From assembly GCA_017416425.1 (NCBI GenBank), contig JAFQCL010000021.1:32747-96746 (forward strand): 64,000 nucleotides of DNA. The letters are read 5' to 3'. Of the stretch, positions 5,299-35,410 are shown one piece after another (positions within the stretch are counted from its first letter, which is position 1; every line of letters starts with the position of its first letter). The notes beneath the pieces are model-generated. The model saw only the letters and a list, made by a program, of their open reading frames with translations, did not search any database and was not told where the DNA came from. Origin of the DNA: Clostridia bacterium. Lineage in GTDB: Bacteria > Bacillota > Clostridia > Christensenellales > CAG-138. Position numbers and translations under genes: made by a program.

Positions 5299-5432
5299 AA
5301 CTGCGACCATTACTTTCGCCCGGCGAAAGTTTCCTTTCTTGTGGAATTGGGACTGGTTTTGTGCTTGCGCAAAATCGCGGCCGGAAGGCTTTTGAAGTTA
5401 CAAAACACGGTTTGAAAATTTATTTTCAAACT
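5299..5432 (-). repeat. Start-codon-adjacent structured element, copy A
   Basis: Minus strand AGTTTGAAAATAAATTTTCAAACCGTG...CAGTCCCAATTCCACAAGAAAGGAAACTTTCGCCGGGCGAAAGTAATGGTCGCAGTT-ATG; same core at 16818, 19391, 28648, 35266. Confidence 0.9.
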
Positions 5433-5553
5433 TCCTCCGTAAAAGCTTTTTTTAGTATAGCACATAGTATTTGAAATATCAATCAAAGTGGGAAAATGTT
5501 TTCAAATGTAATTTTCCGGAAAAATATGGCACTAAAAAAACGAAAAAAATGAC

Positions 5554-5601
5554 TTTACAAGACAAATGTTTGGTGCTATACTGATTACAAACAATCGTTT
5601 G
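5554..5601 (+). promoter_or_regulatory. Sigma-A promoter with two LexA(SOS)-box-like sites
   Basis: TTTACA(5554)-17 nt-TATACT(5577) with extended TG; AGAC-AAAT-GTTT (5560-5571) and CAAAC-AATC-GTTTG (5588-5601) resemble GAAC-N4-GTTC; upstream of a Y-family polymerase. Confidence 0.65.
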
Positions 5602-5610
5602 GAGGGCAAT

Positions 5611-5859
5611 ATGAAGCGGTACAACTATCCTACACGGGTGCTTGTGGAGTTTGATGTAAATGGCGACGTCAAGCCTGCCTATTTTCTGCTGCCTTCGGGA
5701 AGGAGGGCCCGCGTAGACAGCATACTATATCGGGATGAAGCCCGCTTTGGGTATAGGACATACACCTGCTTTGGACTTTCATTTGAACAGCGTTTTGCGC
5801 TGCTCTACTGGGATAAGGTTAGAAATAAATGGTTTTTGATAAAGGAGGGCATGATATGA
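5611..5859 (+). CDS. Small hypothetical protein (82 aa) translationally coupled to dinB
   Basis: GGAGG SD before ATG 5611; stop overlaps dinB start (ATGA). Confidence 0.8.
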   Translation: MKRYNYPTRVLVEFDVNGDVKPAYFLLPSGRRARVDSILYRDEARFGYRTYTCFGLSFEQRFALLYWDKVRNKWFLIKEGMI

Positions 5860-7067
5860 GCATACTGCATGTGGACTTGAATTCATTTTACGCGCATTGC
5901 AGCATAAGGCATAGCGGAGGGAAATATAGAAATGATATGCCCATAATAATCGGCGGAGATCCTGCAAAAAGACATGGCATAGTTCTTGCGGCGACATATG
6001 TAGTGAAAAGACAAGGGATACACGCAGGCATGCCTATCATAAAAGCGGTGCAACTATGCCCCGAAGCGATAGTCATACCGCCAGATTACAGACTTTATAC
6101 GGTCTGCTCAGAGCAGTTTATGAATATAGTGAGGGAATATTCGCCCACCATCATGCGCTATGGCATAGACGAAGCTTATATAGATTACACGGGCTGCGAG
6201 CATCTCTTTGGAAGCGCAAAGGAAGTGGCTTATGCTATAAAGGAACGGGTAAAGCTTGAGCTGGGGATTACTGTGTCCGTAGGTGTGGGGGATAACCCGC
6301 TTATGGCGAAGATGGGGTCGGATTATAAAAAGCCGGATGCCGTTACCATCGTAGACGGCGAATTTTGGAGAAAGAATATAATGCCTTTGAGCGTGGATAA
6401 ACTCATGTACATAGGTAGATCTACCGCAAAAAGGCTGAATGAAATGGGCATATATACCATAGGCGAGCTGGCTCTAACGAGTGAGAGCATGCTTGTGGCC
6501 GTATTCGGTGTTATGGGCAGGCAGATGTGGCAGCACGCGAACGGTATCGATAAGCCAAGGCTTGAAAGATCGGAAGCCGTACACAAGAGCATGAGCTGCG
6601 CCTGTACATTTCCCGAGAACTTAAAGGAAATTTCAGAGTATCACGCCGCCATACTGACCCAGCTTGATAAAGTTTCCTACCGTATGCGGATCACAGGTCA
6701 AAAGGCCTTGGGCGTTGGTGTGAGCGTGCGGTATTCGGATCTGTCGTATAAAAGCAAGCAGATAAAGCTTAACAGGGCTACGGATATCACCGATGAGCTT
6801 TATGCGGCCTCACTTAAAATAGCCGATGGGCTGTATGGTTCAAAGCCGATAAGACAAGTTGGGGTGAAGCTTTTTGATTTAAGTTCATTTGGAGAGCAGC
6901 TTTTGCTTATAGATGATGATGTGCATGAAAAACGAAAAAAGGCAGATACCGCCATAGACAGCATAAGGGAACGCTTTGGAATGCAGAGCATATTCCGAGG
7001 CGCTACTGTGATGCAGTCGCTGCAGGAGGTGGTGGAGAATGATTTTGACCCATTTGACAGATGCTAA
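5856..7067 (+). CDS. dinB: Y-family DNA polymerase IV
   Basis: ILHVDLNSFYA, GIDEAYID, SVGVG.N.LMAKMGSDYKKPD, C-terminal QLLLI and AIDSIRERFG. Confidence 0.92.
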   Translation: MSILHVDLNSFYAHCSIRHSGGKYRNDMPIIIGGDPAKRHGIVLAATYVVKRQGIHAGMPIIKAVQLCPEAIVIPPDYRLYTVCSEQFMNIVREYSPTIMRYGIDEAYIDYTGCEHLFGSAKEVAYAIKERVKLELGITVSVGVGDNPLMAKMGSDYKKPDAVTIVDGEFWRKNIMPLSVDKLMYIGRSTAKRLNEMGIYTIGELALTSESMLVAVFGVMGRQMWQHANGIDKPRLERSEAVHKSMSCACTFPENLKEISEYHAAILTQLDKVSYRMRITGQKALGVGVSVRYSDLSYKSKQIKLNRATDITDELYAASLKIADGLYGSKPIRQVGVKLFDLSSFGEQLLLIDDDVHEKRKKADTAIDSIRERFGMQSIFRGATVMQSLQEVVENDFDPFDRC

Positions 7068-7072
7068 ATCGA

Positions 7073-16817: not shown

Positions 16818-16920
16818 AATTACGACCATAGCTTTCATACAGCGAAAATCACAGGATTTCGCTGGGCGAAAGCTTCCTTTCTTGTGGAATTGGGACTGAT
16901 TGAAAATTTGTTTTCAAACT
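16818..16920 (-). repeat. Start-codon-adjacent structured element, copy B (fills the entire purD-purL gap)
   Basis: AGTTTGAAAACAAATTTTCAATCAGTCCCAATTCCACAAGAAAGGAAGCTTTCG...GAAAGCTATGGTCGTAATT-ATG. Confidence 0.9.
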
Positions 16921-23511: not shown

Positions 23512-23515
23512 AATT

Positions 23516-23545: not shown

Positions 23546-23590
23546 GCTGGTTTTGATATATAAAACTTGACAAAGCTCTGCAAAGGACTG

Positions 23591-24874
23591 TTATTTAGCA
23601 TTATCCAAAAGATCATATATAAGCTCTTTCGCCTGCGTAAGACTTAGATCATTTTCCCTCGCGATGCGAGCAGCGTCCTCAAATTCTATCTTGGATACGG
23701 ATGCATGAGGCCTTTTGGCTGTTTTCATGCGAATATCACCAAGTTTCGTTTCTTTATTTATTATTTCCCGCTCCAGAACATATCTTTGGCTTGTTTCCTT
23801 TCGTATGCCAAGCGTTGTGGTGTGCTTGAAGATGGCCTTAGCGATGGCAAGTTCATCATCTTTTTTCGCAAGCACAGTGAGCATGTAGCCGGGTCTGTTC
23901 TTTTTCATATATATAGGGGTGAAATATGCGTCAAGCGCATTCTTTGCCATTATGCGCTCACATGCAAAGCCAAGATCTTCACCTGTCATATCGTCTATAC
24001 TGCAGGTAAGTAAGGCTATTGTATCGCAACAAAAGCATGAATCAGTCTCCTGCTCATAGCCTATTGCGGCGGATATGATGTTGGCGATAGGAAAATCCTT
24101 CGTGCCGGCGCCATAGCCGTTTTTTTCTATGTTCATCAAGGGCATCGTTCCGTATTCGGTCGCAAAATACGATATGAGCGCAGCGCCGGTGGGGGTGCAG
24201 AGCTCTCCTTTTATATCGCCCGCGTAGCAGGGTATGCCAAAAAGCAGCTTTAAGGTAGCCGGAGCGGGTATGGGAAGTATGCCATGGGCGCAGTGAACAT
24301 GTCCAAAGCCGGTACGGATGGGGGAGACGACTACTCTTTGGGGAGCAAGCTCCTCCATAAGCATACATACGCCAACTATATCGGCCACGGCGTCCATAGC
24401 TCCTACCTCGTGGAAATGGACGGAATGAACCTCCTTTCCATGAACCGAAGCCTCGGCCTTTGCTATGAGCTTATACACATTTTTAGCGTTAGTCTTTACG
24501 GCATCAGATACGCTTAACGAATCTATTAGGCGCTCGATATCCAAAACACCGTTGTGCTCATGATGGTGATGATGGTGTTCATGCTCGTGGTCGTGGTCAT
24601 GGTGATGTTCATGGTCATGATGATGGTGTTGATGCTCAAGCTCATGATCATTATGATCTATGCTGCGCTCCTCCTGACCGTTTACGAGCACAGAAATATG
24701 TGTGCAGCTTATACCGCATTTTTCGACAGGCTCACGGATGACATTTACATTAGGTATGCCTGCGGAGTTTAGCTTTAAAATAAAGTCATCCGCATGGGGG
24801 ACAAGCTCCATGAGAGCCGACATCAGCATATCTCCGGCTGCTCCCATGCCGCAATCTATATAAAGTGTTTTCAT
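23591..24874 (-). CDS. larC: Nickel insertase/cyclometallase LarC with His-rich tract
   Basis: GAAGDML, HFHEVGAMDAVADI, CAHGILPIPAPAT, ELCTPTGAA, MKKNRPG, TTTLGIR; poly-His/Asp/Glu tract. Confidence 0.95.
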   Translation of the reverse strand: MKTLYIDCGMGAAGDMLMSALMELVPHADDFILKLNSAGIPNVNVIREPVEKCGISCTHISVLVNGQEERSIDHNDHELEHQHHHHDHEHHHDHDHEHEHHHHHHEHNGVLDIERLIDSLSVSDAVKTNAKNVYKLIAKAEASVHGKEVHSVHFHEVGAMDAVADIVGVCMLMEELAPQRVVVSPIRTGFGHVHCAHGILPIPAPATLKLLFGIPCYAGDIKGELCTPTGAALISYFATEYGTMPLMNIEKNGYGAGTKDFPIANIISAAIGYEQETDSCFCCDTIALLTCSIDDMTGEDLGFACERIMAKNALDAYFTPIYMKKNRPGYMLTVLAKKDDELAIAKAIFKHTTTLGIRKETSQRYVLEREIINKETKLGDIRMKTAKRPHASVSKIEFEDAARIARENDLSLTQAKELIYDLLDNAK

Positions 24875-24892
24875 GATGTGCTCCTTTTACTG

Positions 24893-25645
24893 TTATTCTC
24901 CGATGTGATTTATCATGCTTGCGCTGTAGCCCGCGCCGAATCCATTATCGATGTTTACAACGGTCACACCGCTTGCGCAGGAGTTTAGCATGGATAAAAG
25001 CGCGGCAACACCGTTAAAAGCGGCGCCATATCCTACCGAGGTAGGGACAGCTATTACGGGGCAGTCTACAAGCCCTCCGATAACGCTCGCGAGTGCGCCT
25101 TCCATGCCGGCCACGACTATTATGACCTTTGCCTTCATAAGGACATCATGCCGTGATAGCAACCTGTGTATCCCGGAAACACCCACGTCATAGAGCTTGA
25201 CGACATTATTTCCAAGCGTTTGCGCCGTTATGGCCGCTTCCTCCGCTATGGGGATATCGCTAGTGCCGCCTGTCGCAACGACTATGTTTCCTATATGGTC
25301 TTTTTGCAAAGTTTCGTTTGCGATGCCTATCCTCGCCTCGGGATGATATGTCAGAGGTATCGTCTTTTCTATAAGCGCGGCTTTTTCGCTGCTTAGCCTT
25401 GTTATAAGCACATCGCGCTCACCTCTTAAAAGCATCCTTTCAAGTATTCCTTTTATCTGCTCGGCGGTTTTTCCTTCGCCATATATGACCTCACATGTGC
25501 CCTGGCGTATGCCTCTATGATGGTCTATATTCGCGTAGCCTATGTCTTCAAATGGCATGCCTTTAAGAGTGCTAAAGGCGGTTTTTGCGTCTATTTCGTG
25601 ATTTTCAAGCTTTAATAGCAGCTCAAGTACCTCTTGTCCGTTCAT
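24893..25645 (-). CDS. larB: NaAD carboxylase/hydrolase LarB
   Basis: DHHRGIRQG..EVIYGEGKT, GTSD, DVGVSGIHRL, AGMEGAL, PTSVGYG, NIDNGFGA. Confidence 0.95.
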   Translation of the reverse strand: MNGQEVLELLLKLENHEIDAKTAFSTLKGMPFEDIGYANIDHHRGIRQGTCEVIYGEGKTAEQIKGILERMLLRGERDVLITRLSSEKAALIEKTIPLTYHPEARIGIANETLQKDHIGNIVVATGGTSDIPIAEEAAITAQTLGNNVVKLYDVGVSGIHRLLSRHDVLMKAKVIIVVAGMEGALASVIGGLVDCPVIAVPTSVGYGAAFNGVAALLSMLNSCASGVTVVNIDNGFGAGYSASMINHIGE

Positions 25646-26442
25646 AGCGTAAGTCCTTTTCTTGGGGTGTCGTCAATGGTGATATCGGTGGAGTATGCCA
25701 TAAGATTTTCCCTGATGTAGGGGATATCAGCTTTTGCGTAGGGAAGCTGCTCATCTGTGAATTGAAGTAAAAGTCCATCCCCATAGAGCCTGGCTCTAAA
25801 GTCGGAAAAACCCATGCTAAAAAGCGATTGCTCTACGGAATCTATGAGCCGCAATTTATCATAACTTATTTTGGCGTTATTCATTATGCGCGTAGCAAGA
25901 CAGGAGTAGGAGGGTTTATCGAATGTGAATAGACCCGCGGATTTGGAATAACGGCGGATTTGAAGCTTGGTAAGCCTGCAATCCCTAAGTGGGGATATCA
26001 CATTAAGCTCCGAGATAGCGCGCATGCCCGGGCGTTCCTCCGCTTTATCGTCAAAGTTGCTTCCATCCGCCAAAAGCAAAAATCCATCTTTTAAGCAAGC
26101 TTTAAGTATGCTTTTAAATATGACCTTTTTGCAGTGATAGCAGCGGTCACTTGAATTTTTTGTTATATCCGGTTCACCTAAAACGCTCAGCCTTATTATG
26201 CGTAGATCGATATCATACTGTTTTGAAAAAAAAACGGCATCCATAAGCTCAAATTCGGGCTGGAACTCGGTTTTTACAAAGTAAGCGGCAACTTCTACAC
26301 CGCATATCTTTGCAGCATAAAGAAGATATGCCGAATCAACGCCGCCTGAAAAAGCAACGGCAAGTTTTTTATGCTGCTTAAGGTAGTTGGAAAGCCCGTT
26401 TGGCACCATGGCAAGAAATTTTCCTTTCAGCTTCCTTATCAT
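25642..26442 (-). CDS. larE: ATP-dependent sulfur transferase LarE
   Basis: AFSGGVDS PP-loop, RCYHCK, DGSNFDD..RPG, PSYSCLATRI; AAGGTG SD before ATG 26442. Confidence 0.93.
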   Translation of the reverse strand: MIRKLKGKFLAMVPNGLSNYLKQHKKLAVAFSGGVDSAYLLYAAKICGVEVAAYFVKTEFQPEFELMDAVFFSKQYDIDLRIIRLSVLGEPDITKNSSDRCYHCKKVIFKSILKACLKDGFLLLADGSNFDDKAEERPGMRAISELNVISPLRDCRLTKLQIRRYSKSAGLFTFDKPSYSCLATRIMNNAKISYDKLRLIDSVEQSLFSMGFSDFRARLYGDGLLLQFTDEQLPYAKADIPYIRENLMAYSTDITIDDTPRKGLTL

Positions 26443-26869
26443 TAAATCACCTTCTTATGATAACTTAAAAATAAGGTAAGTGCAACTATTTATGAAGCCT
26501 TTTGCGGCGCAGTGAAATTTTTGAAAAAAGTGCTTGCCTCTGGGGGAGGTTTATTGTATTATGTAAAATCGTGAGTTAGCCGTACTCTAAAAATATGTGT
26601 TCCATAAATTTTATGCGGACATATTGTTTTACAGCGCAGGCTTATCCTGTGGGTATGCGGGAGATCCGCAGTACTTGCAAAAACGACGACATGGGAGTAT
26701 TAAAAGTAGACGACCCTGCTTTGACAGAAAAATACTATATAAAGCTCGATTTCCGATGGTTGGATAAATAAAATGTTGTGAGCTTTCACTGCAAATAAAT
26801 AATACAATACAAGGCGTGTTAGTTAATTAGCAGGTACAACTGATTTTTTTATGAAGGAGAGAAAAATTT

Positions 26870-27676
26870 ATGAAAAAACCAATTGTATTGATTCTTGTGA
26901 CGGCCATGGTACTCAGCATGCTTCTTATGGGTTGCACCGAACCGGCGGGTTCTGCCAATGGTGAGCAGGAAAACGACAGCCATGGTAACTATACCGATGA
27001 AATGAAGATACCGCACACTAGTGACCTTGACCCCGAGTATGGCGCTGACAGTGTGGAACGCGAAGGCGACCATGAAGACAGTCCGTATTTCAGCCGAATT
27101 GATTTTTACAATGCTGAATCAACGGATACGCTTACTATCCTTAGCGGATTTAAAACTCAGCAGCAGACGAGCGAATGGAGCTGCGGAGTAACAAGCGTGC
27201 TTATGATACTTGACTGGTACGACGCGCTTGGCGAGCACAATGAGGAGACGCTGGCCAATTTCAGGAGCAATGGCCTTACCCCCGGCGCCACCAGCACCCG
27301 CCAGGCGATAGAGATATTTGAAGGCGTAGGCGGCTTTGACATCTATTCTACATTTGATTGCGCCGATGAAGTTTATGACGTATTTACGCTTGACTTCATA
27401 AGGGAGACCCTCGGCGAAGGCACCCCCATAATGGTGGGCTGGAACGATTGGGGCGGACACTGGCAGGTCATCATCGGATACGACACGATGGGAACCGAGA
27501 CCACCCAGGATGACGTAGTTATAGTAGCAGACCCCTATGATACCACAGACCATAACCAGGATGGCTATGGCGTATATGGCGCGGAGAGGTTCATCTACAA
27601 CTTTACATTCTACAACTTCTTTGAAGCTGAAGAGCTGAACGACATGTGCTTTATAGTAGCAACTCCTAAGGCTTAA
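26870..27676 (+). CDS. Lipoprotein with papain-fold C39-like peptidase domain
   Basis: Lipobox LLMGC; QQQTSEWSCG, GGHWQVIIGYD, VADPY (Cys-His-Asp). Confidence 0.8.
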   Translation: MKKPIVLILVTAMVLSMLLMGCTEPAGSANGEQENDSHGNYTDEMKIPHTSDLDPEYGADSVEREGDHEDSPYFSRIDFYNAESTDTLTILSGFKTQQQTSEWSCGVTSVLMILDWYDALGEHNEETLANFRSNGLTPGATSTRQAIEIFEGVGGFDIYSTFDCADEVYDVFTLDFIRETLGEGTPIMVGWNDWGGHWQVIIGYDTMGTETTQDDVVIVADPYDTTDHNQDGYGVYGAERFIYNFTFYNFFEAEELNDMCFIVATPKA

Positions 27677-27737
27677 GCGAAAGTATGACGGCTAAACTCG
27701 CAAGGCTTTAAATAAAGCTTAAACTTTAAACACGAAA

Positions 27738-27770
27738 GCCCACGGTATGAACTTCCGTGGGCATTTTTTT
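27738..27770. terminator. Intrinsic terminator
   Basis: GCCCACGG...CCGTGGGC followed by ATTTTTTT. Confidence 0.85.
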
Positions 27771-27777
27771 GACCATT

Positions 27778-28647
27778 TTACGTATACCACGCCGGTATCA
27801 CCCTATTCATACCATCATACCACTCAAGTATCTCTTTTGCCTGATTTAGCATGGTAGCTATCTCCTTTTCTCCAAATGGGATAGCCCAATAGATGGAGGA
27901 TAAAGTGTTGCTTGATATATAAAGCGCGAGAAGCCCCCAGAATTCTATCGGCACGCCTCCCTCAAAATAGCCATCTACCATGCCTCGGGCAAGCGGCGGA
28001 CATTTTTGCGCGCACCAGACGATGCGGTTGAATTCCTCCCATGGATCGCCAATATCATTGCGGTTAAAATCGATTATGTATAGCTTCCCCGACTTATCTA
28101 TCATCATATTTCCTACATGATAGTCACCATGCTGGTAAGTCTGAGGGCGACCCATTAGCAGATGTCGGTGCGCGTTTATATAACGGATTAGCGCATCGCC
28201 GCCATCGTGTTTTATGGGGCACTCCGTATATCTTTTTATCTTTGCGTCCATTTTTCGTGAGAATCTGGTCTCCCAATCCTCCTGCGCGCTCGGTGCGGGA
28301 ATGGAGTGTATCTTTTTTAGTATCTGCCCGGCTTCAATGCCATAATCGTATTGTTTTTCGGCAGAAAGCAGAGGGAGCAATTCTTCAGCGTCTTTTCCAT
28401 CTATCCAGCTTTGGACGGAATATACGCCATCCTCGCATGTGCCGAATTCTACGGGCATACACATGGGAACGCCAAGAGCGGACACCTTTTGCATCATTTG
28501 AAATTCAAACGATTTTGCGTCAAACTGCTCTATGGGAGAAACGCGCAAAAGGAATCGTGTGCCGTTGTCGTCTGTGATCCTGTATTTTTTATCTCCCGAC
28601 CAGCCTTTATCGATCGGCTCTTTTACTATGGAAGTATAATCAAACAT
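27778..28647 (-). CDS. Aminoglycoside phosphotransferase (APH)-family kinase
   Basis: KGWSGDKKY, HGDYHVGN Brenner motif, IIDF. Confidence 0.85.
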   Translation of the reverse strand: MFDYTSIVKEPIDKGWSGDKKYRITDDNGTRFLLRVSPIEQFDAKSFEFQMMQKVSALGVPMCMPVEFGTCEDGVYSVQSWIDGKDAEELLPLLSAEKQYDYGIEAGQILKKIHSIPAPSAQEDWETRFSRKMDAKIKRYTECPIKHDGGDALIRYINAHRHLLMGRPQTYQHGDYHVGNMMIDKSGKLYIIDFNRNDIGDPWEEFNRIVWCAQKCPPLARGMVDGYFEGGVPIEFWGLLALYISSNTLSSIYWAIPFGEKEIATMLNQAKEILEWYDGMNRVIPAWYT

Positions 28648-28834
28648 AATTACTCTACTATTACTTTGGTACAACAAAAGTGCCAAAACACGGCTTGAAA
28701 ATTTATTACCATGACTTTTGCTGGGTTAAAGTTTCCTTTCTTGTAAAATTGGGAGTGATTTTTTGTCTGTAAAAAGTTGTGGCTCATGGACTTGAAAAGT
28801 CATAAGACACGGTTTGAAAACGCGGTTTCAATCT
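28648..28834 (-). repeat. Start-codon-adjacent structured element, copy D (diverged full copy plus partial tandem copy)
   Basis: TTGAAAC...TTTTCAAACCGTG...CCCAATTTTACAAGAAAGGAAACTTT..AAAGTCATGGTAATAA followed by a second ATTTTCAAGCCGTGTTTTG..CTTT..AAAGTAATAGTAGAGTAATT-ATG. Confidence 0.85.
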
Positions 28835-28875
28835 TTACTTCATTATCGATAGCTTGTTAAAATTTTGATCGCGGC

Positions 28876-29466
28876 TTAGACTAAGCTTTTTGTATATAGG
28901 CGCACCTCATCTATGCGGTAGCATATCGTTTTTAATTCGTCCTTTCGTTGGAGCGCTGCCTGAAAAACGAGCTCCTCAGCGCCGTAAATATCGCCTGTTT
29001 TAGTTTTATCCAGCAGCTCATAGCACTTATCCCGTATCGCGTAGCAGCGAATGTAGGTATTTTCATTTTCCATTTCAAAACCTATGGATCGATAAAATCG
29101 ATTGGCGGCTTTATCCTCCTGTGTCCAAAGCTCACAATATCGGATGCCTCTACTAAGGAGCCGCTTTTGCGCTTCTTCCCATAGATCGGTAGCGATGCTG
29201 CGCCTTCGATATTCGGGCAATACGGCCATATGCCACAAAATAGCGCCTCGGCCTCGATCATTATACGTCAAATCATCCGAATCCATCTCTATATCGATAA
29301 GCCCGATGATCTTACCGTTCTCCTCTGCGACAAGACAAACAGCGGGATGCGGATATATCTCCTTTTTTGTTTTTACATCATTAAAATAGCTGCAATTCAA
29401 AAATGAAACGACACGGCAGGAAAGCCAGCCTTGCTCATCATTGGGCACATATTCACGAATGATCAT
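28876..29466 (-). CDS. GNAT family N-acetyltransferase
   Basis: MAVLPEYRRRSIAT acetyl-CoA motif A, ANRFYRSIGF. Confidence 0.88.
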   Translation of the reverse strand: MIIREYVPNDEQGWLSCRVVSFLNCSYFNDVKTKKEIYPHPAVCLVAEENGKIIGLIDIEMDSDDLTYNDRGRGAILWHMAVLPEYRRRSIATDLWEEAQKRLLSRGIRYCELWTQEDKAANRFYRSIGFEMENENTYIRCYAIRDKCYELLDKTKTGDIYGAEELVFQAALQRKDELKTICYRIDEVRLYTKSLV

Positions 29467-29549
29467 AGAGGATAAAAATCTCGCTTTCTTGAAACATTTT
29501 ATTGATATATACGCATATTTTACCCGATAACGCGGCACCTTTCAATGTT

Positions 29550-30578
29550 TTAACTATCTTTGGTCATTAGTGTATAAAGGGTTTTGAAAGCATTAAAACT
29601 TTGGGGATCGTCCGATCTATCCATGATGATCTTAGCGCATTCCTTAAGGGACAGGGTGTACGTATCAACGGTGACATCGTAAGTGTCCTGTGGATTTAAT
29701 TCCATGAGCTGACCTTCCGCCTGCCCGATCTCACGGTCGCCACGTTCCTTTTCCCTGCGCCGCAGCTCTTCTATGGGGCAATCCACATGAACGAACAAAA
29801 CAGGATAGTCATGAAGAAGCATGACGCATTCTTCCAATGTGCCGTATAGCTTTAGCAGGATGTGATCGACGATCACACTTATGCCCACATCGGAAAACGC
29901 CTTGATAGTGTGGCTCATGCCGGTCATTGCTCTTACGAAATTTTCCATGGTTTGCTTATTATCCGGCATTATATTATAAAACGTGTCACAACTGAGATGA
30001 AAATAAGGGGTCGGCAGTAAGGACTGCAATTTTTTTGCAAGTGTGGTTTTACCTGAACTTGATACACCGTTTAAAAATATGATATTACCCTTTTTGGCAA
30101 TCTCCTTATGCCGTTCATAGCGATAGTATTTAAACTGAGTGTCCGTATGGGTATGCCTAAATCCCAGTTTTTCCAATATGTGCTGGCTTCTTGTGTTTTT
30201 TAGCAAAGTATCGGCATTTATTGTGGTCATCCCAAGAACGTCAAAGGCAAAACGCATGGCCAGTGTTTCGGCATAAGTGCCATAACCTTTTCCTTTAACG
30301 GAATCGTTTTGCATATGAATGCTCAAGGTACACTCCTTATTTGCATGGTCGATACTCTTAAGCTTAACTTCACCAATGGGGAGATCATCCTTCATGACCA
30401 TAAACACGATGCGGGTGGGGGACTGCTGAGCCTCGAAATAGGCATCGACCTGTCCTTGGATGTATTCATATGGGGTAAAGCGGCTCATGTCCGCAAATAT
30501 AGCAGGGTCGTTTTCAAAGTGCTTAAAGAACTGATGACATAAATCTTTTGTCATCACTTGTAGATAAATTTCGCTCAT
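29550..30578 (-). CDS. Fusion of RimJ/RimL-type GNAT and chloramphenicol-phosphotransferase(CPT)-like P-loop kinase
   Basis: N-half KGKGYGT..NTRSQHILEKLGF; C-half IIFLNGVSSSGKTT, VHVDCPIEELRRREKERGDR..GQA. Confidence 0.82.
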   Translation of the reverse strand: MSEIYLQVMTKDLCHQFFKHFENDPAIFADMSRFTPYEYIQGQVDAYFEAQQSPTRIVFMVMKDDLPIGEVKLKSIDHANKECTLSIHMQNDSVKGKGYGTYAETLAMRFAFDVLGMTTINADTLLKNTRSQHILEKLGFRHTHTDTQFKYYRYERHKEIAKKGNIIFLNGVSSSGKTTLAKKLQSLLPTPYFHLSCDTFYNIMPDNKQTMENFVRAMTGMSHTIKAFSDVGISVIVDHILLKLYGTLEECVMLLHDYPVLFVHVDCPIEELRRREKERGDREIGQAEGQLMELNPQDTYDVTVDTYTLSLKECAKIIMDRSDDPQSFNAFKTLYTLMTKDS

Positions 30579-30903
30579 AGAGACTCCTTGATATTAAGTT
30601 CGAGGTGCTGATCCTTTAAAATCTATAAAGAGATCGGTTTTTACGGAATTTATCCCCCTTTTTTTGATTTTTCTTTGGGGACTACTTGTTCACGAGCCTG
30701 CGTCAGAGGATATATACTGCGGCAGAACTGGCCGCACAACGCTTGAAAATCAATGTTGCTTAAAAAATAAAGCCCAAAACAAAAGGCGAAAGCTTCATTG
30801 TATACGAAGTATACGAACTTTCGCCGCTGCAGGTCAAGTACAGAACCCCTGTTAAATAGATGATAATTTAGGTTTATGCTCCCTTATACAAAATGAACTG
30901 CCT

Positions 30904-31338
30904 TTAAAGGAATTGGCGTATATCGATGGCCAATTGTTCCTCAAGGTTTATTAGGCGCTTTGCAATGTCTTTGGAGACTTCATCTGCCGCCTCATATTGG
31001 TTCAGATACCTGTTAAGGGATTTTACACCCATATTACACCCATCTGTCATTAGATCGGCGATGGTCTTGTCCGATTCGTTCAAAGCCAGTTTGACGCTTG
31101 TTTTCATCCAGGACATTCCTTTGGCGATCGGACTTGGGTCTTTTCCTTCATCTTCGTATTGAGCAAGGAGCTGCTGTATCTCATGATCCAGCTTTTTATG
31201 CTCGTTTTTGCAGTCAGTCAGGTATTTTTTAAAATCATCAGCGCTGACATAGCCTAAAACCTCCTCAATGGATGCTGTACCCATTTTAACCCCAGCATCG
31301 CATTCTCGAAGCAATTTTATGGTATCGTTTTCTATCAT
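30904..31338 (-). CDS. Conserved hypothetical protein, probably ferritin-like four-helix bundle
   Basis: 144-aa helical ORF with SD; LLRECDAGVKMG, IADLMTDGCNMG. Confidence 0.65.
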   Translation of the reverse strand: MIENDTIKLLRECDAGVKMGTASIEEVLGYVSADDFKKYLTDCKNEHKKLDHEIQQLLAQYEDEGKDPSPIAKGMSWMKTSVKLALNESDKTIADLMTDGCNMGVKSLNRYLNQYEAADEVSKDIAKRLINLEEQLAIDIRQFL

Positions 31339-31490
31339 TACTTAAATCAGTGTCCTTTCTTATCAGATGTAGAAAGTATTCCCGTTTGCATAGAATACTA
31401 TACTAATAAGAAAATCCGCTTTCATAAAGCATGCGTATACTTAAACGATTGACCTGATTTTAGAAACGTCTTATTAGCGGAAATAGCAAA

Positions 31491-31825
31491 CTAAATATCG
31501 ACTCCAAGCTCTTTTCATTTATCAGTATCAAGGTAGTGGTTTAACAGAGCAGCTTACCGATATTTTGCCGGCTACTTATCGCGCTCTACACCGATGGCAT
31601 CAACGTAGAACCATGCCAAATTGCATTGCGCGTCATGGCGCCGTGTTGTGCGGCCAGATGAGTCCAGTAAAAAGCTTTTTGCATATCTTTTACCACGCCC
31701 AGGTCTTCATAATAAAAACATACAATCCGGCATTCAGCCATTTATCGTATCGCCAGGTGTTTTAAAATTTTCGATCAGCTGATTACATAATTCAGCTCTT
31801 TTTAAGGATTGTAGTAATTACTCAT
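31491..31825 (-). pseudogene. Decayed Sel1-like repeat protein gene
   Basis: Manual translation with frameshifts/stops: MSNYYNP*KELN / AECRIVCFYYEDLGV / KDMQKAFYWTHLAAQHG / DAQCNLAWFYVDAIGVERDK*PAKY. Confidence 0.8.
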
Positions 31826-31854
31826 AGCGTTCAGCCCTCTTGGCTTTGCCAGGT

Positions 31855-32493
31855 TTAGTCCAAAAACTCCACTTCACCTGTAGCTATATTGTAGATAGCA
31901 CCCTTGATTTCGACTTTGTCGAGACTTTCAAGCTCTTTTATGATCTCGCTTGCTCTGATCCTGTCTATACTGTTTTGTACATTCAAGCGCTCTGCCTGCT
32001 CTTTGGTGCAATTTTTTGGAAGACATGAAATTATCTCATCGACTATAGCTTTGATATGACCATGCGCTTCGCCGCTTAAAGCTGCTTCTACAGCGCCGCA
32101 TTGTGTGTGTCCAAGCACCACGATAAGCGTTGCACCCAGGTGCTCCACTCCGTATTCGATGCTTCCAAGCTCAAAATGGCCTATAATGTTACCCGCTGTA
32201 CGTACAACGAACAGCTCGCCAATACCTGCCTGAAAAATATGCTCGGGCGGCACTCTTGAATCCGAGCAGGTGACTATGACCGCATAGGGGGACTGACCAT
32301 TTTCCGCCGTGTCGGTTCGCTTTTCTTTAGATACATCTGCACTATTTTTATCGGAAGAAACATATTCGGCATTTTTTTCAAGAAGAAAATTCATAATATC
32401 CCTTGTATCAAACACATCAGGGGTTTTTGTTTGAGCGCAGCCTGTAAAAATAAACAGCATTGCGATAAATATCAAGATCGTTTTTATTTTCAT
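31855..32493 (-). CDS. Beta-class carbonic anhydrase, predicted lipoprotein
   Basis: CSDSR and GHTQCG zinc motifs, RTAGN; lipobox FTGC. Confidence 0.92.
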   Translation of the reverse strand: MKIKTILIFIAMLFIFTGCAQTKTPDVFDTRDIMNFLLEKNAEYVSSDKNSADVSKEKRTDTAENGQSPYAVIVTCSDSRVPPEHIFQAGIGELFVVRTAGNIIGHFELGSIEYGVEHLGATLIVVLGHTQCGAVEAALSGEAHGHIKAIVDEIISCLPKNCTKEQAERLNVQNSIDRIRASEIIKELESLDKVEIKGAIYNIATGEVEFLD

Positions 32494-32617
32494 GTTTTTA
32501 CATCGTCCTTTGAATTTTTTAAATTATGAATAAAGGTAGATACTACATAAAACTGTATCATACTAAAGTTAAAAGGACAATATTAATTACGGCGCCGTTT
32601 TGTTGTTATCAAGGACA

Positions 32618-32983
32618 TTATTTGCCCCAATGCTTTACGACTTTCCAATATGTATCGGAATCGAAATCAATGATGTATTTTGAATGTTGATCGAATATAA
32701 GATAATATGCTGTTACTGCTTTCTTGCCTTCTTTTACACATTTTTGCAGTCTGTGATTGCCGTCTATCAGTTTATCTTGAGCTTCATTCAATTGAACGAT
32801 TATCAGAGGCTCTGTTATATCGGTAGTCATAGCATATTCTATGTTTCCATTGAATCTATTTTCGCTTACCAATTTCTCAACTGAAAAATCTTTTGTGGCA
32901 AATTGCTCAGTATCATGTAAGATAGCTTCAATATCCCAGACGATACTTCCATATTCGTTGCCGATTTGATATTTTTGCTCCAT
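32618..32983 (-). CDS. Small ParB/sulfiredoxin-like N-terminal domain protein
   Basis: PLIIV...LIDGNHRL motif; GGAGG SD before ATG 32983. Confidence 0.6.
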   Translation of the reverse strand: MEQKYQIGNEYGSIVWDIEAILHDTEQFATKDFSVEKLVSENRFNGNIEYAMTTDITEPLIIVQLNEAQDKLIDGNHRLQKCVKEGKKAVTAYYLIFDQHSKYIIDFDSDTYWKVVKHWGK

Positions 32984-33152
32984 GTCTACCCCCTCCTGCA
33001 AAATGAAATTTTACCACCATTGTGTTACAGTATGTATGGCTAACGCCATAGTGAAGTGTTTTGTTTGCGCAAAACGTGAAGTTAAGTGTGCCACTCACGC
33101 CCGCAAGGCAGACTTAGTTGAAAAAACGACAGGCCAAAACCTGTCGTTATTT

Positions 33153-33243
33153 TGGCGGAGAGAAAGGGATTCGAACCCTTGATGACATTCCTGCCATACA
33201 CGATTTCCAGTCGTGCGCCTTAGACCAACTCAGCCATCTCTCC
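33153..33243 (-). tRNA. tRNA-Ser (GGA)
   Basis: GGAGAGA...CACGA-CTGGAAA-TCGTG anticodon arm, long variable arm, GGTTCGAATCC, encoded CCA. Confidence 0.97.
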
Positions 33244-33363
33244 ATATTGCTATTATTCGTGTTTGCGAAAACCGCTTGATTATGTTAGCATAGTATTGTT
33301 TAAAATGCAAGTGCTTTTTATTAATAGATCCGTACTTTAATAAAATATATTGCCGGAGGGGTT

Positions 33364-34335
33364 ATGGATACGAATAACACAAGGGGTAATGCCTCAAAAA
33401 AACATAAGAAAAAAGGTTCTGCCTTTTCGTTCATTCTATGTATACTGCTTTTGATCTCGGCGCTTGGCTTTGGGATAACATCAACTCTTAGGAATGTCAT
33501 AAATGAAGAAACCCTGACTAACGTGGCAAGAGGCATAGATTATGGCAGTATACCCGTAGGCGCTCTTATCGATGAAGGCGAACCTATGACGCTTGCTGAA
33601 ATGCTTTATGGCCTTGTGGGAGGTATCGGCATTCCCATATCTATAGAGCAAATAGAGGTGATGGCAAATGAATGCGGAATCGCGGAGCTTTTTGAGGATG
33701 TACTTCTTGATTATTGCGCATACATAAAGGACGGCTCGGGAAAGGGCTACATAGAAAGTTCGCGCATTGCCGAATTTGTCGCAGGTATAGGCGGGGATTA
33801 TATGAAGCGTCTTTTGGGAGAAGGTACCTGGATGATGCTTGAGGATACCATAGTAAACGCTATAACGTCCGCTATGGAAACGGGCGATGTCAAGGCGGCG
33901 CTTAATGCCATATCACTTCGCCGTCTTGAGGAAAGCGGGGAGATAGACCTTGACGTTATTCGCTTTTTGATATCGGATGTGATGCTTTATATTGCACTTT
34001 TTGTTGTCATAATCACCACCATACTTCTTATTAGGGCAAATAGACCAAGAGCAAGAAAGGGCATACTTAAAGCAAGCATTTTGACGTTTGTCGTTGCATT
34101 CATATTCATCATAATCTGGGTTGCTTTACCAATTTTGATAGAAGGAGATGGTAATGACGCGCTGCTTATGTTCATTTCGTCTGAGCTGTTACCGGGGATC
34201 ACCGAATCCATGATGGCAGTAGGCGTCATATTCATTGCGGTGGGCTTTATAGAGCTTATTGTGTACTTTATAGCCGCGTCAAAGGCAAAAAAGCGCTCTG
34301 CCTTGAACAAAGCAAAGAGTAGAGGAGCTATGTAA
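33364..34335 (+). CDS. Hypothetical membrane protein
   Basis: N-terminal TM, extracytoplasmic region, three C-terminal TM segments; GGAGG SD. Confidence 0.75.
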   Translation: MDTNNTRGNASKKHKKKGSAFSFILCILLLISALGFGITSTLRNVINEETLTNVARGIDYGSIPVGALIDEGEPMTLAEMLYGLVGGIGIPISIEQIEVMANECGIAELFEDVLLDYCAYIKDGSGKGYIESSRIAEFVAGIGGDYMKRLLGEGTWMMLEDTIVNAITSAMETGDVKAALNAISLRRLEESGEIDLDVIRFLISDVMLYIALFVVIITTILLIRANRPRARKGILKASILTFVVAFIFIIIWVALPILIEGDGNDALLMFISSELLPGITESMMAVGVIFIAVGFIELIVYFIAASKAKKRSALNKAKSRGAM

Positions 34336-34356
34336 TTTTTGAAGAAGGGATCAAGT

Positions 34357-35265
34357 TTGAAAATCAATATGGAAAAAGGTCTTAAAAAGAATAAAAACAG
34401 AAATATAGCCTTTCTTATCAAGCGTATACTTGCGGGTGTTGTGATAGGTATCGGCGGCATCATACCAGGGGTCAGCGGAGGCATAATGGCTGTGTCGCTT
34501 GGACTTTATAAGCCTATGCTCGATGCTGTAAGCGGTATTTTAAAAAATTTTAAAAGGAGCCTCAAGTTCCTCTTGCCGATCGCGATAGGCGGCATCGTGG
34601 GTCTTCTTGCTACATCCCACCTTGTGGAATGGGCGCTTGATGCATATCCTATACCTGTCATGTGCCTGTTTGTCGGTCTTGTTGCCGGAGGTATACCTAA
34701 TCTTATTTCAGAAGCGAATTCAAAGGGTGGGTTTAAAAAACGCTATCTTTTCGCGACATTTATAGGCGCTCTTTTTGTGTTTGGGCTTTCTTTGCTTGAA
34801 ACGCTGCTGTTTTCGAACAATCCCCTCGAATTTAACTACCTTACCGCCATGCTTACAGGAGGAATACTCGCGGTAGGAACGGTAATACCAGGCATAAGCA
34901 CATCCTTTATATTGATGTTTTTAGGACTTTACGAGCCTCTTATTGGAACTGTTAACACCGTTACCGATATTCCACTTATAATCGACATGATAGGCGGAAA
35001 CGGTGCTGCGCTTATGGCTTGGATAGATGCGCTTCTTCACATGGGATTTGTGCTTATCGGAGTAGCTGTTGTTGGACTTTTATTGGTGCTGCTTGTCAAA
35101 AAACTTATAGAAACCTATCATGGCTATGCTTACTATGCTATATTGGGCTTCCTTGGGATGTCGATGTGTCTGATATTTCCGGGCGGCGCCGCTGCCGGCA
35201 TGCTGCTCGTATTTGGCTTTATGGCGTCATTTATTATAGATAAGTTTATGAATAAAAAGGCATAG
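34357..35265 (+). CDS. DUF368 family membrane protein (start TTG 34357 or ATG 34369)
   Basis: Duplicated IPGVSGG / IPGISTS motifs, multiple TM helices. Confidence 0.88.
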   Translation: MKINMEKGLKKNKNRNIAFLIKRILAGVVIGIGGIIPGVSGGIMAVSLGLYKPMLDAVSGILKNFKRSLKFLLPIAIGGIVGLLATSHLVEWALDAYPIPVMCLFVGLVAGGIPNLISEANSKGGFKKRYLFATFIGALFVFGLSLLETLLFSNNPLEFNYLTAMLTGGILAVGTVIPGISTSFILMFLGLYEPLIGTVNTVTDIPLIIDMIGGNGAALMAWIDALLHMGFVLIGVAVVGLLLVLLVKKLIETYHGYAYYAILGFLGMSMCLIFPGGAAAGMLLVFGFMASFIIDKFMNKKA

Positions 35266-35410
35266 AGTTTCAAAATAATTTTCAAGCCGTGTTTTGTGAC
35301 CTTCGCACCATTTCGGCTGCGATTTTGTGTTTGCACAAAACCGGTCCCAATTCCACAGGAAAGGATGCTTTAATACATCAAAAGCATGTATTAAAGTTAT
35401 GGTAATAAGT
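35266..35410 (+). repeat. Start-codon-adjacent structured element, copy E (fills the DUF368-tcdA gap)
   Basis: AGTTTCAAAATAATTTTCAAGCCGTGTTTTG...GCACAAAACCGGTCCCAATTCCACAGGAAAGGATGCTTTAATACAT..ATGTATTAAAGTTATGGTAATAAGT-TTG; colinear with copy A. Confidence 0.9.

Follow-up and report, generated by a model that had tools for sequence, protein, structure and literature searches.

Five copies of a structured repeat, each abutting the start of a different gene, raise the question of what one sequence is doing in front of unrelated genes. They lie in the stretch of DNA analyzed here, the window, which is 64,000 nt of contig JAFQCL010000021.1 (GCA_017416425.1; positions 32,747-96,746, forward strand) from a Clostridia bacterium (CAG-138). 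We lean toward the reading that this start-codon repeat is a non-autonomous dispersed element that carries a portable, split ribosome-binding site.

Repeat copies at start codons

The first-pass annotation of the window had recorded five copies, and all are present at the places and on the strands that it gave (Table 1). The repeat is ~135 nt long, with short forms of 85-105 nt. We saw the layout it had described in the same order: a hairpin, an optional middle module, the core CCCAATTCCACAAGAAAGGA, a CTTT..AAAG hairpin, ATGGT, and the start codon. The middle module is missing from copies 2 and 3. Pfam confirmed that the downstream genes are functionally diverse, with matches to GT2, FGAM synthase (purL type), AICARFT (purH type), APH, and ThiF/TcdA-like families; the gene upstream of copy 2 matches GARS. 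As had also been noted, the copies at 16.8 kb, 19.4 kb, and 35.3 kb fill gaps within operons, each starting at the point where the co-oriented ORF upstream has its stop codon. The copy at 28.6 kb is real and abuts an ATG, but it had been taken for a single copy and is actually a full copy followed by a truncated second module. Similarly, the repeat does reach the start codon, but the last 3 nt, which had been called variable, have the consensus AAT or AAA, because the element extends right up to the start codon.

Table 1. Repeat copies and features of copy 1 in the window. R1 range is the fit of covariance model R1, which takes in the host start codon for copies 1, 2, 3, and 5; the range for copy 2 overshoots at the 5′ end because the fit is global.
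Feature	Position	Strand	R1 range	R1 bits	Remarks
Copy 1, full length	5299-5433	-	5296-5433	133.5	5′ UTR of GT2 glycosyltransferase gene (Pfam)
Copy 1, host start codon	5296-5298	-			
Copy 1, P0 hairpin, GUUUGAAAA-UAAA-UUUUCAAAC	5410-5431	-			MFE fold; directly 3′ of host SD GGAGG
Copy 1, optional middle module	5355-5408	-			GUGUUUUGUG + P2 hairpin + P3 hairpin
Copy 1, conserved core CCCAATTCCACAAGAAAGGA	5332-5351	-			
Copy 1, proposed extended Shine-Dalgarno AGAAAGGA	5332-5339	-			3′ part of core
Copy 1, P4 hairpin, ACUUUCGCC-GGG-CGAAAGU	5312-5330	-			Between proposed SD and AUGs
Copy 1, tail ATGGTCGCAGTT	5299-5310	-			Family consensus ATGGTCATAAAT
Copy 2, short form, P4 region doubled	16818-16921	-	16815-16962	50.1	Fills purD-purL gap
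Copy 2, host ATG	16815-16817	-			
Copy 3, short form	19391-19474	-	19388-19474	53.6	Fills gap between IMP cyclohydrolase-like gene and AICARFT gene
Copy 3, host ATG	19388-19390	-			
Copy 4, full copy (28698-28835) + truncated second module (28648-28697)	28648-28835	-	28698-28835	74.7	Upstream of APH-family kinase gene (Pfam)
Copy 4, host ATG	28645-28647	-			
Copy 5, full length, P4 lengthened (35367-35397)	35265-35410	+	35265-35413	107.5	MFE fold; spans upstream gene's stop codon to TTG start
Copy 5, host TTG start	35411-35413	+			ThiF/TcdA-like gene (Pfam)

The family is far larger than five. A scan of the 1.63 Mb genome with R1 detected 54 copies, and in 38 of them the 3′ end coincides exactly with the start codon of an ORF that is at least 80 codons long. 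A further eight lie no more than 20 nt from such a start codon, and two precede ORFs of 77 and 79 codons. Both position and sense orientation are almost invariant, in line with the targeting of start codons that had been proposed. Among R1 matches that end in ATG, 37 of 43 open a frame of at least 80 codons, compared to 20% of all 69,668 ATGs in the genome. Non-genic copies also have an ATG at the usual distance downstream. An ORF follows all 24 copies in other GTDB metagenome-assembled genomes (MAGs), and an ORF start follows 72 of 80 metagenome matches. In 67 of these 72, whose ORF starts 11-13 nt on, the spacing between the first ATG and the ORF start is 12 nt; copy 1 likewise has its first ATG in frame with the host ATG and 12 nt before it. 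The 69 proteins encoded downstream of copies include long ORFs of housekeeping size, and among them we found neither paralogy nor a recurring transposase-like gene.

Conserved structure and a putative ribosome-binding site

The structure of the repeat had been described as conserved, and the alignments bear this out. Stems P0, P2, P3, and P4 covary, and pairing exceeded that in all 500 shuffles and all slid controls. Within the genome, 84.2% of cells are paired versus 77.5% in shuffles, none of which reached 84.2%. Across species, 94.1% of cells are paired, compared to 85.2% in shuffles and 35-52% in slid controls, with 295 double-change cells versus 73.5 in shuffles. All nine P0 pairs show compensatory changes (97.3% paired; 81 distinct sequences), and in the cross-species comparison six of seven P2 pairs and three of six P3 pairs covary. 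P4 is paired at 91% in 53 copies from the genome and at 99.2% across species. Counts of G:U versus A:C point to a sense-strand RNA for P0, P4, and the helix that closes the body, UGUGRCU:GGUCAUA, but not for P2 or P3. The minimum free energy (MFE) folds of three younger copies have z-scores of -5.0 to -6.9.

How might a gene tolerate such an insertion? In this reading, each copy occupies, in sense orientation, the spacer between the host gene's Shine-Dalgarno (SD) sequence and start codon, and ends where the ATG begins. Its best-conserved stretch, AGAAAGGA(A/G), would pair with the 3′ tail of 16S rRNA; it is complementary to ...CCTCCTTTCT, the 16S rRNA gene 3′ tail of the same-family genome G013 (16S gene end in same-family genome, ...GATCACCTCCTTTCTA). 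By folding out ~21 nt, P4 would bring AGAAAGGA beside the element's own AUG (AUG GUC AUA AAN), which is in frame with the host AUG, and would leave AGAAAGGA effectively ~12 nt from the latter. As the element would carry its own SD, insertion between the host SD and ATG would leave the gene unsilenced and essential genes would tolerate it. Judging from sequence, we propose this use of the internal SD and this role for P4; at 12 nt, the effective distance from the host AUG is long, which counts against a portable ribosome-binding site. In the account of T4 genes 38 and 25 in PMC3014915, a hairpin between SD and AUG is required for initiation and cuts the spacing from 22 nt to 5 nt in gene 38 and from 27 nt to 11 nt in gene 25. 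The likeness is that a hairpin shortens a spacing that is too long; the T4 cases, however, are single genes tested by experiment, whereas ours is a dispersed repeat for which the design is predicted.

Decay of the family is informative about which parts matter. GAAAGG is retained in at least 90% of 53 genome copies, and together with the base of P4 and the final ATG it is best kept among old copies, whose median pairwise identity is 66%. Degenerate copies retain the core, P4, and tail only. The 5′ modules (P0, P2, P3, and the closing helix) are kept in young copies and decayed or deleted in old ones, and therefore probably serve spread or regulation rather than host translation. Since the first AUG is mutated in ~13 of the 54 old copies, and the tail spacing is sometimes 11 or 13 nt, the first AUG is not essential.

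The host SD may also still be in use. Of 79 distinct flanks, 48 have a GGAGG-like run to the left of the element, at a distance of 0-8 nt (mode 1-2), as would be expected if P0 and a closed four-way junction loop out the insertion and bring host SD and host AUG together, with the internal purine tract being structural. The MFE folds of the three young copies close the body through UGUGRCU:GGUCAUA(AA), so that just 1-2 + 5-6 + 3-6 unpaired nt separate the host SD from the host AUG, and the closing helix is 85-92% paired across species, with one-sided changes that retain G:U pairs. Nonetheless, compensatory change in this helix is almost nil, old copies drop its 5′ strand while retaining SD, P4, and tail, the other 31 flanks lack a GGAGG-like run, and one filled site lacks, to the left of the element, the SD found at relatives' empty sites. 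We consider such a loop-out improbable. In the young-copy folds, the internal GGAA is base-paired to UUCC and part of the first AUG falls within the closing helix, a prediction that fits a sequestered or regulated ribosome-binding site, or a loop-out design, as well as an active one.

Translation of the element itself seems highly implausible. In this scenario, which amounts to a natural bicistronic design, the host SD would direct ribosomes to the TTG of AGTTTG, from which they would cross the element and stop beside the host ATG, coupling translation to the downstream gene. The TTG frame does stay open in several copies, where the TAA of CATAA closes it 2-5 nt short of the ATG, but CTG replaces TTG in many subfamilies. 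The outcome also varies across the 28 copies examined: the frame stops close to the ATG, stops within the element, or runs out of frame into the gene, which largely rules the scenario out. Moreover, stop triplets are equally few on the antisense strand (0.96 and 1.19 observed versus 4.5 expected from sense-strand shuffles).

A portable ribosome-binding site is compatible with, and could coexist with, a regulatory role. If the repeat were mainly a cis-regulatory RNA and its dispersal secondary, dozens of genes would be co-regulated at translation, either by a trans-acting protein or small RNA that binds the invariant core CCCAAUUCCNCAAGAAAGGA, or by a ligand that shifts the pairing of GUUUUGUG among its three mutually exclusive partners, CACAAAAC, CACAAGA, and the tail GUCAUAAA. 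Besides the existence of these partners, the 11-nt stretch 5′ of the SD, CCCAAUUCCAC, roughly equals the SD in conservation, whether copies are compared within a genome or between genomes, and REP2, the closest known kind of repeat, is described as marking a co-regulated gene set (PMC3184786). However, the host genes share no function, the switch would need the middle module, which is absent from one third of copies in the genome, and no candidate factor was identified. In addition, the G041 subfamilies with CCGAAAGAAAGG disrupt the predicted P1 pairing UUUUGUG:CACAAGA and show no compensatory change for it. We regard a primarily regulatory leader as rather unlikely.

Distribution, empty sites, and possible routes of spread

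The repeat is patchily distributed. Of 150 other genomes in the family, 13 contain it; it was detected in neither of two genomes of the same genus and in four of eight and five of eight genomes of two genera of the family. Five other gut Clostridia MAGs contain 15 to at least 92 copies each, and gut metagenomes, human ones among them, also contain the repeat. Copies cluster by genome: the nearest neighbor is from the same genome for 39 of 52 copies, compared to 15.8 expected. Orthologous sites in relatives are short, element-free SD-plus-spacer junctions. In G001 and G002, the junctions orthologous to copy 2 are 15-20 nt long and contain an SD, and those orthologous to copy 3 are also empty. 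At filled sites, ~5 nt of host spacer are apparently gone. No filled/empty polymorphism was found among strains in four runs from three studies or among 120 metagenome loci.

The first-pass annotation had interpreted the repeat as a non-autonomous mobile element or a cis-acting RNA specialized for initiation regions. Copy number and patchy distribution, empty sites, clustering by genome, near-invariant position, non-paralogous downstream proteins, and a search of Rfam that returned no matching family all support this interpretation and agree with its not having recognized the repeat as a named family. That the repeat is mobile we infer from its distribution alone. If so, its route of mobilization is site-selective and leaves neither terminal inverted repeats, which the annotation had also reported missing, nor target duplications, as we found neither.

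These absences would suit a palindrome-associated derivative of the IS200/IS605 type, which a Y1 (HUH) transposase would mobilize as single-stranded DNA by recognizing the subterminal hairpins P0 and P4 and a short target including ATG (on the other strand, CAT plus A/T-rich sequence). A hairpin lies close to each end (P4 is ~10 nt from the right one), the ATG is present at its usual distance even after non-genic copies, and IS200-like Y1 transposase copies occupy three places in the genome, of which two are contig ends. These transposase copies carry in-frame stops, however, and their ends are unlike those of the repeat. Y1 transposases occur in three of six host genomes, that is, in just two of the five others. 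The Y1 mechanism inserts without loss of target bases, in contrast to the ~5 nt missing here, and P0 is just 2 nt from the left end, unlike the geometry of IS608. An origin of this type is thus, in our judgment, very doubtful. IS110 and reverse transcriptase were each detected in one of five host genomes (for IS110, G000 was outside the search), and TnpB had no matches in the genome that contains the window. Among these candidates (Y1, IS110, reverse transcriptase, and TnpB) we found no mobilizing enzyme for the repeat, nor did we find a transposition intermediate.

Comparable repeats

Mycobacterial interspersed repetitive units (MIRUs) occur as tandem minisatellite units, REPs lie mostly at gene 3′ ends, and the pneumococcal BOX, RUP, and SPRITE repeats are small, modular, structured, and intergenic, include internal modules that are optional, and number from tens to hundreds. 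To our knowledge, BOX, RUP, and SPRITE are tied neither to start codons nor to one gene-relative orientation, whereas the repeat described here is tied to start codons in a nearly single orientation. The resemblance, as far as the account in PMC3049150 extends, is that of modular structured intergenic Firmicutes repeats with optional modules. IS200/IS605-derived hairpin elements and REP/RAYT systems, as outlined in PMC2775950, share strand specificity, hairpins near the ends, and the lack of terminal inverted repeats and target duplication, but we found no cognate transposase with matching ends, and target bases are lost.

MIRUs are described as 40-100 bp repeats, 40-50 per genome, that lie between operon genes, are co-transcribed, and have ends that overlap the flanking genes, with an empty homologous site in a relative (PMC3184786). 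Location between operon genes and empty sites in relatives are thus shared features. The same description gives MIRUs tetranucleotide direct repeats, imperfect terminal inverted repeats, and small ORFs (PMC3184786); our repeat has none of these, nor tandem units.

As a category, the start-codon repeat is not wholly new, because comparable repeats, Neisseria REP2 and the Borrelia plasmid repeats IR-A/IR-B, have been published (PMC3184786). These are the closest known kind, compared here by description and not by sequence. REP2 is described as a dispersed repeat of 120-150 bp, present in tens of copies, without terminal inverted repeats and with an unknown mode of proliferation (PMC3184786), and in size, dispersal, copy number, and ends the two are alike. 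REP2 also contains its own promoter and marks ~14 co-regulated genes, according to that description (PMC3184786). In contrast, we found no internal promoter in the two copies scanned, which included copy 1, where a sigma-70-like host promoter (5482-5454) lies upstream of the element. Also unlike REP2 as described, 27 of the 54 copies follow a co-oriented ORF at a distance of no more than 60 nt, the genes that host the repeat are diverse housekeeping genes, and the repeat spans several genera, reaches at least 92 copies per genome, and has four stems that covary.

Genome-wide copies and their position at start codons

Reading their sequences confirmed the places and layout of the five copies that the first-pass annotation had described in the window, and Pfam verified the diverse genes assigned to follow them (see table). 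The genes before two operon-internal copies are purD and an IMP cyclohydrolase-like gene, and three window copies do begin at the stop codon of the preceding gene. The family extends far beyond these five. In the host genome (41 contigs, 1.63 Mb, 44.6% GC), the 20-base core of the element occurs 45 times with at most four mismatches, and an HMM built from 16 full copies gives 51 matches at E<1e-3. Our covariance model, R1 (138 positions, 37 pairs), gives 54 matches (E<=0.01; 150 candidates scored out of 833).

Table. Coordinates of element copies and associated features. C, contig of the host genome; L, locus.
Feature	Position	Strand	Details
Element copy 1	window 5299-5433	-	before GT2 gene
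Element copy 2	window 16818-16921	-	before FGAM synthase gene (purL type)
Element copy 3	window 19391-19474	-	before AICARFT gene (purH type)
Element copy 4	window 28648-28835	-	before APH kinase gene
Element copy 5	window 35265-35410	+	before ThiF/TcdA-like gene
ORF called from the element's own ATG	window 4369-5310	-	
Antisense terminator pattern	window 5312-5340	+	
Terminator pattern	L120: 215-245	+	
Terminator pattern	L120: 312-335	-	
Well-preserved copy preceding no gene	C2:32050-32187	-	best-scoring copy in the genome
Well-preserved copy preceding no gene	C18:100716-100862	+	
IS200-like Y1 transposase copy	C23:289-645	-	among L039-L041
IS200-like Y1 transposase copy	C24:8392-8469	+	among L039-L041
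IS200-like Y1 transposase copy	C29:23252-23329	+	among L039-L041
ZMP/ZTP riboswitch	window 23396-23512	-	RF01750, Rfam, 51.4 bits
Selenocysteine tRNA	window 40501-40593	-	RF01852, Rfam, 73.2 bits
Long ORF adjoining the tRNA	window 40656-42572	-	638 aa
Long ORF adjoining the tRNA	window 42569-43948	-	459 aa

Tabulating position and orientation across the genome upheld the proposed association with start codons. For 38 of the 54 matches, the end coincides exactly with the start codon (37 ATG and one TTG) of a frame of 80 codons or more; by comparison, a frame of 80 codons follows 20% of the genome's 69,668 ATGs. In eight more, such a start lies at most 20 nt away, copies with doubled or nested modules, including window copy 4, being among them. 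Two further matches precede ORFs of 77 and 79 codons, and six have no gene after them. Every copy is in the sense orientation relative to the gene it precedes, with window copies on both strands. For 27 copies, a co-oriented upstream ORF of 100 codons or more terminates between -60 and +12 nt of the element start, and in 12 of these the stop codon of that ORF overlaps the first bases of the element, the element's own TGA included.

In two of the six copies lacking a gene, an ATG is followed, at most 14 codons on, by a stem and T-run that we read by eye as a terminator. The two well-preserved copies on C2 and C18 are of this kind: in both, a terminator-like hairpin comes downstream, after a 14-codon ORF in one and after ATG TGA in the other. 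The C2 copy follows a small Cys/Asn/Gly-rich ORF.

The element also carries an ATG of its own, 12 nt upstream of the host ATG, and start codons may therefore be called 12 nt early. Mechanical ORF calling starts genes that bear the element, such as the ORF after window copy 1, at this upstream, in-frame ATG. Automatic annotation of genes bearing the element may thus add an MVxx N-terminal extension, spurious or real.

The copies in the host genome are old (pairwise identity at most 86%, median 66%) and are fixed in strains from three other studies. Those in G041, another carrier genome, are younger (at most 91%, median 79%), and one family in gut metagenome contigs, some titled human gut, is near-identical by eye across different loci. 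These results confirm and greatly extend the initial observation, and they support its interpretation as a non-autonomous mobile element or a cis-acting RNA at translation initiation regions; the best reading is that the element is a dispersed, non-autonomous repeat.

Conserved structure and a putative ribosome-binding site

RNAalifold supported helices P2, P3, and P4 in 22 copies from several genomes. With a five-helix model, 84.2% of cells were paired in 53 copies from the host genome compared to 77.5% in shuffles, none of 500 shuffles reaching the observed value, and there were 119 double-change cells compared to 43.7 (slid controls, 28-55%). A revised model applied to 81 distinct sequences from many genomes gave 94.1% compared to 85.2% paired and 295 compared to 73.5 double-change cells (slid controls, 35-52%); both alignments were fitted to the model, which favors structure. 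In the larger set, compensatory changes occurred in nine of nine pairs of P0, six of seven of P2, three of six of P3, and three of eight of P4.

Minimum free energy folds of three younger copies, with z scores of -5.0 to -6.9, contain P0 and a four-way junction with the closing helix UGUGRCU:GGUCAUA. This helix would explain why GUUUUGUGRC and AUGGUCAUAAA are both conserved; it is 85-92% paired with hardly any covariation and, as a model, weakly supported. We substituted it for the P1 helix drawn by RNAalifold (UUUUGUG:CACAAGA), which is invariant in A1 and, in the G041 copies with CCGAAAGAAAGG, is disrupted with no compensating change.

Counts of G:U relative to A:C pairs, which serve to distinguish RNA from DNA hairpins, are mixed: 25:8 in P0, 6:2 in P4, and 34:16 in the closing helix, compared to 6:23 in P2 and 15:15 in P3. 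Since G:U exceeds A:C in P0, P4, and the closing helix and not in P2 or P3, the outer stems likely act as sense-strand RNA, and the element as a whole may do so. A simple intrinsic-terminator pattern is matched in window copy 1 and at locus L120. On the antisense strand it is formed by P4 and the adjoining TTCCTTTCTT, which is complementary to the proposed Shine-Dalgarno (SD) sequence; on the sense strand, P0 followed by GAUGUUUUGU fits it too. Judging from these patterns, the element might also attenuate sense transcription or block antisense transcription. Some copies contain an extra hairpin within P2 (e.g., GAGCCGATTC...GAATCGG) or after P0 (L144, L149, L155, L157, and L159 in G041; L027 in the carrier genome G042), and the element therefore accepts nested modules.

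In the old copies of the host genome, conservation is highest at GAAAGG (>=0.9), at the base of P4, and at the final ATG. P2-P3 is absent from approximately one-third of these copies, several of which retain only the core, P4, and the tail, and the first ATG is mutated in approximately 13. We found no 16S rRNA gene in the host MAG or in G041. As the 16S gene of G013, a genome of the same family, ends in ...GATCACCTCCTTTCTA, the element's AGAAAGGA pairs with the last 8 bases of that tail. In model geometry, with P4 folded (~21 nt including an AG/CT extension), the proposed SD is directly adjacent to the first AUG and ~12 nt away from that of the host gene. By analogy, P4 folding would shorten the SD-AUG spacing as at split sites of phage T4, where PMC3014915 gives a reduction from 22 to 5 nt for gene 38 and from 27 to 11 nt for gene 25. 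From the sequence comparisons, we lean toward the view, the best supported of those considered, that the element is a portable, self-contained split ribosome-binding site. Its own SD would let it sit before essential genes, and the 5′ modules would serve spread or control.

Four rivals to this view remain, one of them the IS200/IS605-type element considered below. The element could be the leader of a translational regulon, an explanation that remains in contention and is compatible with a portable ribosome-binding site. Also still standing is a fold that loops out the element so that the host SD stays in use. By contrast, a translated leader ORF with translational coupling is largely refuted: the frame from the TTG of AGTTTG ends near the ATG inconsistently across 28 copies, CTG replaces TTG in many subfamilies, and the paucity of stop triplets is equal on both strands.

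Distribution, boundaries, and arrival at start codons

BLAST with one copy against 40 relatives gave one weak match. With the covariance model (E<=1e-5, 21 candidates scored per genome), 13 carriers were detected when 150 other genomes of the family were searched; at the same threshold, neither of the two genomes of the same genus had the element. The 13 carriers fall in five other genera, within which presence is patchy (4/8 and 5/8). An exact-pattern scan of species-representative genomes identified 22 loci in other MAGs, which come from gut samples, those of ruminants among them, and have the labels Lachnospiraceae, Oscillospiraceae, Clostridia, or Eubacteriales; all 24 copies in these MAGs precede an ORF, and five of the genomes contain at least 92, 41, 15, 40, and 21 copies (150 candidates scored each). 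A looser pattern matched at least 120 stretches of metagenome contigs, some of which have human gut in their titles; among the 80 metagenome matches listed, an ORF begins 11-13 nt beyond the first ATG in 72 (67 at 12 nt). Two element patterns had no match in viral contigs, nor did a pattern search of plasmids and phages. Identity is 82.6% within genomes compared to 74.2% between them, and 39 of 52 copies have their nearest neighbor within their own genome (15.8 expected).

One metagenome locus (e.g., L177, L178, L185, and L189) recurs on many gut contigs, some titled human gut; by eye, it accounts for several tens of the 80 loci listed. It holds a diverged copy that keeps the SD, P4, and the tail (GAAAGGAGACTTTCGCCGAAGCGAAAGTCATGGTCATAAAAATG) with a different 5′ part, before a 305-codon ORF, and looks like an old copy fixed in a common gut species. 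In two pairs of contigs (L229 and L182; L232 and L240), the left flank and element are common to the pair and the right-hand genes differ, either because copies recombined or because the assemblies were mis-joined at the repeat. Contigs may break or mis-join at the element.

Empty sites were found in related genomes. In the two same-genus genomes, G001 and G002, whose DNA is only ~65% identical to the host genome, the purO-like/purH and purD/purL junctions are 15-20 nt long, with GGAGG and without the element. Comparisons within genus g17 are better. At site A, where flank identity is ~77%, G106 has TGA, element, ATG, and five congeners have TGA, 7-14 nt containing an SD, and ATG; the SD of the empty congeners is absent to the left of the element in G106. 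At site B, G106 has ...GATGAA, element, ATG, and three congeners have an SD (GGAGG, or AAGGA in G081), 7-10 nt, and ATG. In contigs of four runs from three studies covering window positions 16400-36300, copies 2-5 were bridged at >=99% identity with no joint that skips the element, and the joints listed between window copies are repeat cross-joins. We found no empty allele among 120 metagenome loci, and the only two other genomes of the G041 genus were not syntenic at the site examined.

The right end of the element is flush with the host ATG. The consensus of the 3 nt before this ATG is AAT in the host genome and G041 and AAA/AAC in the young metagenome family; since these bases follow element subfamilies by eye, they are part of it. 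At the left end the sequence is AAGTYTGAAA, with AA before GTYTG in 29 of 32 copies. In alignments the ends, AAGTYTGAAA and GGTCATAAAT, are not inverted repeats, as first noted, and the MITE hallmarks of terminal inverted repeats and a target-site duplication were not found there. We considered AA as a target-site duplication and rejected it, as exceptions in the left flank do not co-vary by eye with those in the right.

Of 79 distinct left flanks, 48 have a GGAGG-like run 0-8 nt ahead of the element (mode, 1-2 nt). As GGAGG lies 6-7 nt from the ATG in ordinary genes of the host genome, ~5 nt of host spacer appear to be missing, and most of the spacer appears, from these flanks, to be replaced by the element and not merely interrupted. 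Since the element ends at the ATG and starts 1-2 nt after the SD, with no duplication and ~5 nt of spacer gone, we entertain, as an outside chance, that recombination, with the SD and start codon as its anchors, exchanged the spacer for the element, the initiation signal being read by the placing mechanism. The route may be homology-guided, RNA-guided, or an unknown recombinase. If such swaps occur, they would define a class of mobile DNA specialized on ribosome-binding sites, host genes, even essential ones, would depend on the element's own SD, and the invariant core could wire up to ~4% of genes into one translational control circuit. How the element arrives at start codons is the most interesting part of the finding.

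A single-strand element of the IS200/IS605 type remains a competing explanation for this arrival. IS200/IS605 elements insert beside a fixed 4-5 nt target, with bases neither lost nor duplicated; here the ATG always abuts the right end, yet ~5 nt of spacer appear to be missing. The Y1 transposase (PF01797) was found in two of five other host genomes, IS110 and reverse transcriptase in one of five each, and TnpB had no match in the host genome, which is 95% complete. None of these enzymes tracks the element; all the genomes are MAGs, in which absence is weak evidence. The IS200-like copies of the host genome, which contain in-frame stops, have ends that differ from those of the element, and no cognate Y1 transposase with the same hairpins at its ends was found. 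Since two sit at contig ends, the IS200-like sequence is multi-copy and breaks the assembly. By eye, these copies lie just downstream of terminator-like stem and T-run sequences.

Related repeat families and neighboring features

The first-pass annotation had recognized no named family, and the element likewise matched no family in Rfam: a scan of the window at the gathering threshold (Rfam 15) placed no match on the element, and there was none at E up to 1 for three loci with full copies. Our literature search found no description of the family, and a full-text search with three core strings returned no papers, supplementary tables lying outside its scope. Compared by description alone, the closest described kind comprises neisserial REP2 and the Borrelia IR-A/IR-B repeats, and we rate the element as a new member of an existing category, not a new category. 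According to a review (PMC3184786), these repeats are 120-150 bp long, lack terminal inverted repeats, contain two internal stem-loops, lie immediately upstream of ORFs, and carry a promoter, ribosome-binding site, and ATG. The element is likewise dispersed and intergenic, ~135 nt long, present in tens of copies (54), and without terminal inverted repeats in alignments. It has internal stem-loops, with compensatory changes in P0, P2, P3, and P4, and resembles REP2 in its translation-start signals: the putative ribosome-binding site AGAAAGGA, complementary to the 16S tail, its own in-frame ATG 12 nt upstream, and its flush junction with the host ATG. Unlike REP2, it has no detected promoter: a simple consensus scan of two copies found no sigma-70-like site, and for copy 1 the scan placed the host promoter upstream of the element. 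Moreover, many copies are operon-internal before housekeeping-type genes, the host range is wide, the copy number higher, and the stems covary.

The element also resembles MIRU in its intercistronic, co-transcribed position. According to the same review (PMC3184786), a MIRU is flanked by direct repeats of four nucleotides, has imperfect terminal inverted repeats, and contains small ORFs that overlap the genes on either side. The ends of the element have neither flanking direct repeats nor terminal inverted repeats, and there is no conserved through-ORF; the upstream stop codon does overlap the element in 12 of 54 copies.

Should our reading hold, dozens of genes of housekeeping type in gut Clostridia that are abundant have had their native ribosome-binding-site spacer replaced by a repeat, selfish or domesticated. 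The repeat would also be a natural, reusable split ribosome-binding site for many gene contexts, of interest to translation research and to synthetic biology in Firmicutes, and its invariant core (CCCAAUUCCACAAGAAAGGA) could be a handle for genome-wide translational control. The element may help explain how start-codon-fused repeats such as REP2 proliferate, an open question according to the review (PMC3184786) and a testable one here because there are hundreds of copies of different ages in many genomes.

Rfam also identified two RNAs in the window (see table). Upstream of the purine-biosynthesis gene cluster, which includes element copies 2 and 3 as well, is the ZMP/ZTP riboswitch. Judged by their position, the two long ORFs adjoining the selenocysteine tRNA may be, in the order listed, selB and selA.
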